This document shows positions 14,701 through 17,700 of a DNA stretch of 64,000 nt, in pieces. The DNA lies in assembly GCF_053078305.1 (NCBI RefSeq), contig NZ_CP166879.1. The stretch is one strand, 5' to 3'. Position numbers: made by a program. The first letter of the stretch is position 1, and every line of letters begins with the position of its first letter.

Positions 14701-17700
14701 AAAATGAGCGAGATGTATGATGGCCGTTTTTCGCGTGAAGCATTTCTTAACTTGTCCGTGGCGGCAGACTCTGTAAACAGGGCCGCAATCGAGTTCGTAT
14801 TTATGAAAAGCACGGTCGATTCCGGCATTATTTATTGCACTGTATTCCGTATCACTGAAGAAAGGTGGAAATACGATGTATCCTTCCATTGTCAGCGCCA
14901 GAACGCGCGGATCGGTTTCTGTCAGCCATTCGTTTTCTGTGAATTCTTCAGAATTAATTTCAATGATTTCAGGTTCTTCTTTCATGGTTACTCCGTGTTC
15001 ATCCGGTGTTAATTACTTTTATTCACTCTGAGCGCAGCCAGAAGATGTGGCTCAGCAATTCGTTTGTTGCGATATATCTGTGATACAGCCTGGCCTTTTC
15101 AGGTTGTAAAAATCCCCGACAATAAAGCTGTAAATTAATTACTGTTCTTAAATAATGTTATTCGTTTTCAGTCCGGCACAGATGCTTTTCTGCTTTGTCT
15201 GCTGTACAGGATAATGAGCGGAAAAGACAATTCATCATGTTTAGCGCATCTGGTGAACCAATATCACCGCTGTCAATAATCACCTGTAACAAAGACAGGC
15301 TTTCTGTTATCTCGCAGTGGACATTATCGAGTACTTCAACGCAATTATTCATTTTTCATTATCTCCGTTATTCCGGGGGAGGAGCTATGCTGTTAATGAT
15401 TAACGCATCTGGTAATATGCCCCTCTTTAATGTAATCGATGCATTCATTCAAAAGTTCATCAATGATTAACTTTCCTGATTCAGTCAGATACTCACCATG
15501 TTGGTTGATACCGACAGCATCCTGGTATGCAGTGCGTATTGCTGTTTCACCATCTTTCCGCCCAAACTCACCACGGGTAACGCCTTCAAATCGTAATAGC
15601 AACTGGTTTATGAACTGTTCTGTTATTTCAATAGTTGTTAACTCTCCATCATGACGCTTTACAGTGAGGAGATTACTTCCTGTTTTTCGTTTCATCCGCC
15701 GCAGTGCTGCAACCGTTATGCGGCGACGATATGCAGAAATGTATTTATCTTTCATTTGTTATTTCCCGTATGCCTTTTTGAGAAACAATACTGCAACTGA
15801 CCAGTATCCGGCATCAGCCATTAATAAAGCGGTTTTATAGGCATGTTTGTCTTTCATGTGTCATCCCCATTTTTAAATAGTGAGAATTCACGACCGCAGA
15901 CCGTCATGTTTTTATGTATGATTGTCTGTTTAATTTCCTTTATTCGTTCTCAGAGCATCAACATACTCGTAAGCCTTTTCACAGGTTTTATTCATGGAAC
16001 GAATCAGACAAAGTAAGAAATCATCTGTCTCTCCGTTATCACCAGAGTTTTTAAATATAAACTCAAGCATTGACGTGTTTTCTTTTATTTCTGCTGCCAC
16101 TTCCTCAAGCATAATCAGGGGAGTTTTCATGTTCTTTGTTCCTTAAATGCATCGCATGCGCTTCTGGCGTATTGTTGTGCCAGTAAAAAGATGTCATCCG
16201 AAAGTTCATCACATTCTTCATCACCGGAAGCCGAAATGATTAACCCCGCTTCAAGCAGTACTGCAATGTGATGAAAAGCTGTTTCCGGTTCGTTGGTGAG
16301 GCCTTTGAACATTTTCATCTTACGATTCCTTTGTAGTGTCAGAATGGAAACCTGTAAGTAACCACATCGGATCGCAGTCAAGTATATTTGCCAGAGGAAT
16401 CACCTGGCTTGCCAGAGGTTCAGCCTTGCCGTTCTCCCACTGGATGATGGTTTCTTCATCAACTCCAAGCAGCGTGGCGAGTTCAGCGGTGGATAGACCG
16501 CAGCTTTCGCGTTGGGTGCGGATCTCATGGGGGCAATCAGAAATGTTTTGTTTATGAATTAACAAAGATAATGTGTGAGATACTTTGTTTATTATATCCC
16601 ACGCCATTCCGGCGCATGACTCGATATCATTGGCAAGAGTTGTATCTGGCGCTGCTTTTGCGATAAGAGCAATGAGGGAGCCAAGATTTTTTAAATCTTC
16701 AATGCATGATAGCGTAGTTTTTTGGAACATATTAATGATACCTCAGTTACTTTTTTAGTATGGTAACTAAAGTATCATTCATGGGCAAGCGTTTTTTGAT
16801 ACTAAAGTATCTTTCTTAGAAAATATCCCATCGGGCATCCACGATCACGCCGACGATTTCACAATCATCATCTATTTCAATGATGGGATACTGAGGATTG
16901 AGTGGTTTCAGGAAAGATCTTCCCATTTCAGTCACATATTTTTTGAATGTTGCTTCGTTGGTTGATTTTTTTCTTGCGATAACGTAACAGCCTGAATGTA
17001 CAGCTTTGTCTGGGTTTACGAGAATAGACATACCCTCAGGAAAGGTGATTCCAACAGGCGAGGTCATTGAATCACCATGTACTTCAAGCCAAAAACCTCT
17101 TTCACCTGCATATTTGACAGAATGTCTCCAGTTATCATGGTCATACATGCTGTAATCATCTCCAGCAGTAGAGAATAGTCCGGCCTGGACCCAGTTAATA
17201 ACGGGATAGGAATGAAATGCGTCTTTTTGAGGACAACTCTTAACATTGTTTTCCCAGTTTACAGATTGTTCTTCTCCATTTTGTAGCCATTGTGGAGTGC
17301 AGTTTAGGGCTGTGGCTACCTTGAATAAAGTATCTCCGTTGAAGCTTTTAGTAAGTCCTTGCTCTGCTTTGCTTATAGCCACGCGGGTTATACCGGCTTT
17401 TTTTGCTAATGCATCTTGTGTCAATCCTGCCCGTTGCCTGGCGCTGCTAAGGCGCTCTCCCAAAGTTCTCATTTTATCTCTCCTGTTTTTTCGGTCGATA
17501 CTAAAGTAGCACATATTCTTGATACTTTAGATTCATTTGTTGTACATTTATGGACGCTAAAGTATCAATCAGTGAGTGAGAGATGACTCTTTACGAAATT
17601 TTAAAAGCTGAGTTTAAAACCAATGCTGCAATTGGTCGCCGTTTCCCTAAGAGAGGAAAACCTAGAGGTAGTCAGGGCGTTGGAAAGTGGAAAACCCGAG

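Follow-up and report, generated by a model that had tools for sequence, protein, structure and literature searches.

A probable phiP27-type OL-cI-OR switch in an E. coli prophage and the modular, acidic helix-turn-helix protein encoded beside it

Gene Layout and Operator-Like Repeats

The region described here lies in a 64-kb stretch of NZ_CP166879.1 (the window, to which all positions refer) and contains a repressor gene, cI, flanked on both sides by operator-like repeats, with a gene for a 136-amino-acid (aa) helix-turn-helix (HTH) protein directly beyond the left set. A prophage in the chromosome of E. coli JNEC-KY171 matches the region at 99.5% identity; there, the order of genes is integrase, excisionase, an ORF6N-domain gene, an HTH gene and a LexA-family repressor, followed by two small rightward genes and then by a DEAD-box helicase, a toprim primase and the Q antiterminator. 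Versions of the region that are about 77% identical were found in other E. coli strains, and its relatives among phages include phiP27 (genes L10-L12), several Stx1a and Stx2a phages, and phi467. The genes of the switch itself are as follows:

16816-17472, minus strand: cI, 218 aa; ATG after AGGAGA; N-terminal HTH_3 and C-terminal S24 autopeptidase domains
16320-16730, minus strand: gene of the 136-aa HTH protein; starts 85 bp beyond the cI stop codon, on the same strand as cI
17583-17792, plus strand: cro-position gene, 69 aa, basic; aligns to cro-position proteins of related phages

This layout agrees with that given in a preliminary description of the same DNA, as judged from open reading frames, Pfam matches and the annotation of the near-identical prophage by the NCBI Prokaryotic Genome Annotation Pipeline (PGAP). 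PGAP makes the identical call for the cI start and names the product a LexA family protein. The left repeat set likewise stands, as described there, directly upstream of the 136-aa gene on the repressor strand.

The preliminary description had also placed five copies of a short motif around cI, two to the left and three to the right. The copies are there and are non-random, but the exact 11-mer ACTAAAGTATC occurs only twice (16766-16776 and 16801-16811), both times in the left set, whereas the right-hand copies at 17500-17510 (ACTAAAGTAGC), 17521-17531 (minus strand) and 17556-17566 (GCTAAAGTATC) each carry one mismatch. With up to one mismatch allowed there are six matches vs. 0.51 expected, a number reached in none of 100 shuffles; the sixth, at 17324-17334 within cI, has one half-site only and is probably a chance match. 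Read out into its flanks, the repeat unit becomes a 14-bp quasi-palindrome, GATAC-TWWA-GTATC (general form GATAC-N4-GTATC), which was absent from the earlier account, as was a third left-hand copy. With two or fewer mismatches the 14-mer is found at five sites only in the 64 kb, all of them in the two intergenic regions that flank cI (10 strand-hits observed vs. 0.5 in dinucleotide shuffles, or about 0.25 sites). The sites of the left (OL) and right (OR) operators and the predicted leftward (pL) and rightward (pR) promoters are listed below:

17553-17566, no strand assigned: OR site nearest cro, GACGCTAAAGTATC; centre at about +4.5 of predicted pR; positional equivalent of lambda OR1
17521-17534, no strand assigned: middle OR site, GATACTTTAGATTC; over the -35 element of predicted pR, centre at about -27.5
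17497-17510, no strand assigned: OR site nearest cI, GATACTAAAGTAGC; at about -51.5 of predicted pR; positional equivalent of lambda OR3
17519-17548, plus strand: predicted pR, TTGATA, 18-nt spacer, TACATT; a consensus-scan match
16798-16811, no strand assigned: distal OL site, GATACTAAAGTATC; palindrome perfect except at the centre; at about -51.5 of predicted pL
16763-16776, no strand assigned: OL core site, plus-strand sequence GTAACTAAAGTATC; between the two hexamers of predicted pL, at about -16.5
16737-16750, no strand assigned: degenerate third left copy, GATACCTCAGTTAC on the plus strand; at about +9.5 of predicted pL
16760-16788, minus strand: predicted pL, -35 TTGCCC (16788-16783), 17 nt, -10 TACCAT (16765-16760); a consensus match found by eye

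Predicted pR overlaps two of the repeats, one on its -35 element and one on its start region, and the OR site nearest cI is expected to overlap pRM, the promoter for repressor maintenance. On the left, the OL core site fills the spacer of predicted pL and touches its -10 element, and transcripts from this promoter would start near 16753. The degenerate copy, which appears when the central four bases are left free, spans the Shine-Dalgarno GAGG of the 136-aa gene and is possibly a third left operator.

Repressor and Conservation of the Operator-Like Sites

The cI product was matched to Pfam Peptidase_S24 (8.9e-23) and HTH_3 (5.9e-14, residues 10-63), and its N-terminal domain, with a net charge of +6, matches 434 Cro and P22 C2. 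The match to lambda repressor (3BDN) reaches 3.7e-34 across residues 11-215, and in this alignment the VQAG cleavage site, the GDSM serine (GNSM in lambda) and the FKK lysine all line up. Because of this match and of the aligned cleavage site, serine and lysine, CI is by sequence a lambda-type repressor and presumably RecA-cleavable.

In relatives of the same immunity (E. coli MS20657, phiP27, Stx1a and Stx2a phages), whose CI is 87-88% identical, every site is retained at an identical position. Across 25 OR variants and 29 OL variants of the window's immunity type, which we call type A, the sites are nearly fixed, and the spacers and loops vary; for the distal OL site, a half-conserved copy stands at the equal position in all type-A relatives. 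The hexamers of pL (TTGCCA/TACCAT) are kept in the type-A relatives checked. The heteroimmune phages phi467, PhiR49_2 and Stx2_EH2246 have the flanking genes in common with the window, an unrelated CI (only 24% identical), another cro, and ATCAAGT-type repeats at both OL and OR. ASU11, again with common flanking genes, carries a third CI and AATAG-N6-CTATT repeats. The cro-position gene is exchanged together with cI in the heteroimmune relatives. Retention of the sites within a type together with their replacement between types is, in these comparisons, the classical signature of heteroimmunity, and it bears out the immunity region proposed in the preliminary description.

We conclude that the locus is most probably the OL-cI-OR switch of a phiP27-type lambdoid E. 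coli prophage, in which the 136-aa gene would be the first gene transcribed from pL and would be repressed in lysogens. Control of this gene by the repressor, which had been proposed before, is the natural reading, because the left set overlaps predicted pL and the 136-aa gene comes first behind it. In a lysogen, the repressor bound to the OL and OR sites would shut both early promoters; upon SOS-induced self-cleavage of the repressor, pR and pL would both fire. As the first pL product, the 136-aa protein would then belong to the early lytic phase rather than being expressed in the lysogen.

Some observations fit this picture less well. Both promoters are consensus matches, and the scan shows no promoter-like excess over shuffles in this region. 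Neither the consensus scan nor inspection by eye gave an acceptable leftward hexamer pair by which pRM could be located; the sole minus-strand promoter match near OR (17498-17471) runs into the cI start codon. The centre-to-centre spacings, 35 and 26 bp on the left and 24 and 32 bp on the right, are not all as in lambda, and cooperative pairing therefore cannot be assumed.

Position and Modularity of the 136-aa Gene

The 136-aa protein consists of an N-terminal helical hairpin (residues ~1-65), specific to the immunity type, and an XRE/HTH_3 fold (residues ~67-127) that is conserved across types. In 90/90 loci examined at the outset, the end of a repressor gene on the identical strand lies within 450 bp upstream of the homologue of the 136-aa gene. 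No exception was met among 30 further loci obtained by targeted retrieval (22 with N-domain type N2 and 8 with N3), which brings the total to 120/120, and in all of these the gene stands first behind predicted pL. Clustering placed the HTH core in one cluster and the N-terminal domain in six, each tied to one repressor type, and a seventh N-domain type (P0081) was found beside yet another repressor. The pairing of N-domain type (N1 in the window) with repressor type is thus one-to-one in seven types, with no exception. Among the repressor types are two pairs with a common C-terminal but a differing DNA-binding domain, and one type without an S24 domain.

The joint between the variable and the conserved half falls at the domain linker. 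In L071, the HTH variant of the window follows another N-domain; conversely, the N-domain of the window is found elsewhere with other HTH variants and tails. The position of the joint together with these recurring recombinants indicates an exchangeable cassette made up of the hairpin domain, OL, cI, OR and cro. The N-terminal hairpin would thus lie inside the immunity cassette, and the conserved acidic XRE-fold domain outside it. Database entries that show a short 'HTH' protein of 74-107 aa (P0066, P0083, P0087) are at least partly due to miscalled starts; the open frame in L092 extends upstream of the annotated start through an N4-type hairpin and thus specifies a full N4-type protein. This modular, immunity-linked N-terminal domain had no place in the preliminary description, nor had the RNA hairpin to which we now turn.

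A Predicted Hairpin over the Ribosome-Binding Site

Between cI and the 136-aa gene, the OL core site and the degenerate left copy form the 5′ and 3′ arms of an inverted repeat:

16737-16776, minus strand: inverted repeat, stem of 14 bp and loop of 12 nt; folds in cI-sense RNA at about -20 kcal/mol

In this stem 16776-16763 pairs with 16750-16737, including the GAGG of the 136-aa gene, with a pairing probability of 1.00 for the ribosome-binding site (RBS) and z scores of -4.3 to -4.5. When the 5′ regions of 24 prophage genes were compared, none stood out as strongly as this hairpin. The predicted pL start falls in its loop, and RNA beginning there, without the 5′ arm, folds at only -2.9 kcal/mol. 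An equivalent RBS-covering stem lies just before the start codon in five of the seven immunity types, with arm sequences that are unrelated: N3 and N4 carry an operator in the loop, between arms that do not resemble operators, and the arms of N6 are likewise unrelated to operators. N2 has a true terminator after cI and no RBS hairpin. Our tentative suggestion is a fold-back device, in which the stem would keep the 136-aa gene untranslated on RNA reading through from cI, and pL transcripts, which would start inside the hairpin, would escape.

How far the left inverted repeat (16737-16776) belongs to the RNA and how far to the operator has to be weighed here. It is quite possible, though somewhat less likely than not, that the repeat is mainly an RNA-level element which blocks the 136-aa gene and the two small genes coupled to it on RNA reading through from cI in the lysogen, rather than a third operator; alternatively, the stem could stabilise the 3′ end of the cI mRNA. 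The strength of the hairpin in silico and its coverage of the RBS speak for an RNA-level role, as do the arm centres, TTTA and TGAG, which pair through G-U only; this is fine in cI-sense RNA and breaks the symmetry of the DNA. Between ASU11 and L080, three one-sided changes in the equivalent stem all retain pairing via wobble. The lack of any relation to operators in the arms of N3, N4 and N6 points the same way, and so does the distribution of terminators, since type A has none after cI, and N2, which has one, lacks the hairpin. Set against this are the near absence of covariation in the type-A arms, the fact that pairs of operators fold in silico anyway, the presence of both terminator and hairpin in L007, and the circumstance that the pL starts are predicted.

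For the fold-back device as a whole there are further difficulties. Type N7 is without the RBS hairpin and also without a terminator, and the predicted pL transcript of N3 retains most of the stem. In type A, the arms of the hairpin are themselves operator-like, and the region upstream of cro also folds (z = -3.6) through operators pairing mutually, so the left hairpin could be a by-product of two adjacent operators. The type-A arms are moreover nearly invariant: 17 variants show two wobble-compatible changes and one disruptive change.

Fold and Charge of the 136-aa Protein

Searches with the 136-aa protein returned generic HTH families only (Pfam HTH_3, 2.9e-11). NCBIfam and PADLOC gave nothing beyond this (in PADLOC, the N-terminal HTH of RmrA), and the neighbouring small proteins had no match in PADLOC. 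The protein belongs to PHROG 4739, annotated as of unknown function, and its C-terminal half is covered by PHROG 4836, a 'CII-like regulator'. An AlphaFold2 monomer of modest confidence (predicted local distance difference test 70, predicted template modelling score (pTM) 0.39) shows helices at 2-26 and 30-65 followed by a five-helix XRE fold, the hairpin and the XRE fold having no fixed mutual arrangement. Foldseek matched XRE domains only, with P22 C2 first and 434 also among the top matches.

The XRE domain is strongly acidic. Its net charge is -7 in the window and -6 to -9 (isoelectric point (pI) 4.1-4.3) in 47 of 48 distinct variants, the sole exception being a truncated copy, vs. +2 to +7 for 12 HTH domains of CI and cro proteins encoded in this set of immunity regions. 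The N-terminal domain has a net charge of -3, and the pI of the whole protein is 4.6. At the start of the recognition helix, where the 434 and P22 repressors read bases, D-E-E aligns to S-N-V of P22 C2. With so acidic an XRE domain and D-E-E at DNA-reading positions, binding of DNA by the 136-aa protein is doubtful. The 'second DNA-binding protein' of the preliminary description thus keeps its XRE fold, with its presumed activity in doubt. The pL-first protein of L003, L006, L008 and L009 (Stx1a/Stx2a phages, ASU11), of 215-242 aa, contains a second HTH, again acidic, with a recognition helix that includes a proline. The Stx-phage 'Clade VIII CI' reported to have two HTH domains and no S24 domain (PMC8951638) may be this two-HTH pL-first protein and not a repressor.

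Types N2, N3, N5 and N6 of the N-domain are detectably homologous to one another. A profile of the hairpin domain searched against 1.84 billion representatives found only 50 proteins (~50 at 50% identity), in which the hairpin stands free or, in the longer matches read, N-terminal to XRE-HTH domains. Against PDB and Pfam, the same profile matched only de novo designed helical repeats and no Pfam family.

We consider the chances about even that the 136-aa protein acts via protein contacts and not by classical operator binding. Pairing or specificity would fall to the hairpin and contact with a conserved basic partner to the acidic domain, and the protein would modulate the switch once derepression has begun. 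A narrower proposal, which we think unlikely as it stands, is that of an immunity-specific commitment factor that is not a transcription factor. Here, the hairpin would recognise the DNA-binding domain of the cognate repressor or the cognate Cro, and the conserved acidic XRE-like domain would either mimic DNA, as a generic decoy, before a basic DNA-binding surface or bring in a host factor. Leftover repressor would be inactivated, and lytic growth locked in, by the initial burst from pL, the RBS hairpin would keep the dangerous protein untranslated in lysogens, and the free-standing hairpin paralogues encoded downstream would target the switches of competing prophages.

Action through protein contacts meets several objections. 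The one-to-one link of N-domain and repressor is equally predicted by simple physical linkage. Although some distant hairpin+HTH relatives are equally acidic, others are neutral with ordinary-looking recognition helices, and some family members have a second HTH. An AlphaFold2 run on the protein fused with the CI N-terminal domain, based on a paired alignment of 16 rows, yielded no confident complex (pTM 0.33), a result that still leaves room for one.

In the main alternative, the 136-aa protein would be an early regulator of the conventional kind, dimeric and DNA-binding, for example a CII stand-in or a second Cro-like repressor. Its hairpin would then only dimerise, and the match with repressor type would be pure linkage beside OL in an exchanged cassette. 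We regard this as somewhat less likely than not. The XRE fold is clear, its nearest matches being the P22 C2 and 434 repressors, and the label of PHROG 4836 on the C-terminal half is in keeping with such a role. The neutral distant relatives and the forms with two tandem HTH domains are easily accommodated, and the related N2 and N5 accompany related CI N-terminal domains (44-50% identity), as co-inheritance predicts. However, the net charge of -7 and D-E-E at the base-reading positions, the latter in every E. coli variant, make it less likely, and the second HTH, where present, is no better suited. Furthermore, an HTH that is conserved should have a target that is conserved as well, whereas the promoter region of the gene itself is type-specific; no conserved target site was found, although no search was aimed at one.

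It is very unlikely that the gene is a lysogen-expressed exclusion or immunity accessory like rexAB or sieB. Its location on the cI strand, 85 bp downstream with no terminator between, would allow co-transcription with cI, but operators and a predicted promoter lie in that interval, the RBS is occluded in silico on read-through RNA, and type N2 has a terminator between cI and the gene. The 'exclusion factor' considered in the preliminary description finds no support either in defence families, none of which was matched beyond generic HTH, or in the sequence features, which point to silence in lysogens. Least probable of all is that the repeats are not repressor operators but chance matches, promoter elements or sites solely for another protein; Cro, we assume, very probably shares them, as in lambda, but five sites vs. 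~0.25 expected, all beside cI, palindromic as fits a dimeric HTH protein, conserved in position in relatives and replaced alongside the repressor in heteroimmune phages, leave this little room.

Some more specific assignments were tried and rejected. An N-like antiterminator does not suit an N-terminal domain that is a helical hairpin of net charge -3 without an arginine-rich RNA-binding motif; the earlier suggestion of an 'N-position regulator' is right as to position, but the protein is acidic and lacks that motif. A CII-like activator was discarded, as Pfam gives generic HTH only and the gene lies on the pL side, not downstream of cro. The label 'CII-like' is uninformative, since its bearer in phage LMessi has the HTH at its N-terminus and lies among differently arranged genes. 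PsrA/PsrB, O157 prophage regulators considered as a lead, are of the AraC type and unrelated.

Comparison with Known Systems

The switch resembles that of lambda in the homologous C-terminal domain of CI with its aligned cleavage site, serine and lysine, in the three sites between the divergent cI and cro-position gene, in the multi-site left operator over the leftward promoter, and in the logic of SOS induction. It differs in the length of the operators (14 bp, GATAC-N4-GTATC, vs. 17 bp in lambda) and in the site spacings. OL stands directly after the cI stop codon without rexAB or a terminator, OL and OR are ~0.7 kb apart, the CI N-terminal domain is nearer the 434/P22 type, and the first pL gene is not N. 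As such, the switch is an ordinary, undescribed lambdoid member, with the 14-bp operators, OL abutting cI and the N-less pL operon as variations. Its first early gene is uncharacterised and somewhat odd, being neither N, CII nor a defence protein.

The immunity type is shared with phiP27 (L10-L11-L12) and some Stx1a/Stx2a phages, as seen in CI (87-88%), the same cro-position protein and the operator positions. L10 of phiP27 is the orthologue of the 136-aa protein (65% identity); the window copy differs in joining the N1 hairpin to another variant of the HTH domain and tail. The records of phiP27 type carry automatic annotations only (hypothetical, helix-turn-helix, transcriptional regulator). 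In the searchable literature, which did not extend to the original phiP27 paper, we found no description of type-A operators or of L10 function. Two papers on Stx-phage regulatory regions treat CI clades and cro/replication-side genes, not the 136-aa gene, and a paper on porcine Shiga toxin-producing E. coli merely cites phiP27.

The 136-aa gene is like N of lambda, imm21 and imm434 in coming first after pL, with an N-terminal part that travels with the cassette and a conserved C-terminal part. In lambda N, the N-terminal RNA-binding motif matches the cassette-borne nut sites, and the C-terminus contacts host factors. The 136-aa protein, in contrast, is acidic, has an XRE fold and no arginine-rich motif, and stands outside the N family. 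An analogy can also be drawn with SinR/SinI of Bacillus subtilis, in which small SinI antagonises the regulator SinR through a heterodimer. Both systems combine an XRE-HTH domain with a two-helix oligomerisation module and encode small free-standing paralogues of that module alongside. Yet, the domain order is reversed, sequence homology was not detected, and the free-standing hairpins of the window resemble N2/N5, not their own N1.

For the RBS hairpin the parallel is IS10, where a hairpin sequesters the transposase RBS on transcripts from outside and the element's own promoter starts inside the hairpin. The present case differs in being a phage early gene after a repressor gene, with a hairpin seen in silico whose type-A arms double as operator-like sequences. 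MOR of the lactococcal phage TP901-1 is an HTH-fold switch protein that acts by binding the repressor and not by binding DNA alone; it is small and stands at the cro position, so that its likeness to the 136-aa protein is one of idea only.

Since the immunity type is carried by phiP27 (Stx2e) and some Stx1a/Stx2a phages, its operators and promoters should be useful for work on Shiga-toxin induction. In at least seven immunity types, the N position is taken by the 136-aa family, which is split exactly at the linker into a cassette-specific and a conserved half. If the hairpin half does read the immunity type, phages without N would here have a switch component of a new kind; otherwise, the family is a clean natural example of immunity-cassette exchange via a recombination joint inside a gene. 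The RBS hairpin with a promoter inside it would, if true, offer simple silencing of its early genes to a phage without a terminator after cI.

Small Proteins and Other Features along the Prophage

Two small genes follow the 136-aa gene and are translationally coupled to it, by a 1-nt gap and then by an ATGA overlap:

16127-16318, minus strand: free-standing 63-aa helical-hairpin protein; start 1 nt past the stop codon of the 136-aa gene; PGAP coordinates
15930-16130, minus strand: second small protein, 66 aa, helix-loop-helix pattern; ATGA overlap with the preceding stop codon; PHROG 6882

The 63-aa protein is homologous to the N2 and N5 hairpins, not to N1 of the window (phmmer, 1e-8 to 1e-6), and another small protein family is homologous to N3. 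The 66-aa protein aligns with the hairpin set, its homology to the hairpin family being one of pattern only. A third small protein of the pL operon, encoded at 15158-15352 (minus strand), shares the helix-loop-helix pattern; all three are 63-66 aa long.

Further down the operon, 15393-15755 (minus strand) encodes a protein of 120 aa with an arginine-rich N-terminus, AYRRRITVAALRRMKRKTG, which falls in the family of phiP27 L08 (PHROG 1737, function unknown), and this gene is preceded by a 175-bp non-coding gap at 15756-15929. Protein and gap are candidates for an N-like antiterminator with a nutL-like leader. No boxA/boxB was identified, although nut sites downstream of pL and pR were not searched for systematically.

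On the other side of the switch, the cro-position protein (17583-17792) has a very basic insertion, FPKRGKPRGSQG, where the turn of the HTH of heteroimmune relatives would be, and it matched no model in Pfam and NCBIfam. Between genes for a 97-aa and a 122-aa protein lies a G-rich non-coding stretch of 240 bp (18105-18347) that contains the repeat CTAGTACAT in two copies and a GGGGGGCACCCC hairpin. Its fold is somewhat more stable than those of shuffled sequences (z = -2.9), and it is ~78% similar to a stretch of Salmonella phage Fels-1. No Rfam family matched it; an origin is possible, as is a structured RNA, for instance an element of the put/nut kind.

An Rfam scan of 14000-20000 gave no match in or near the switch. 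Elsewhere, within 8587-8777, 22776-22947 and 27719-27930, gathering-score matches were obtained to two naRNA4 elements, sok and STnc100. The naRNA4 elements are not among the prophage genes of the near-identical E. coli record, the integrase of which maps to ~9.8-10.8 kb. The sok antisense RNA adjoins a hok/gef gene.

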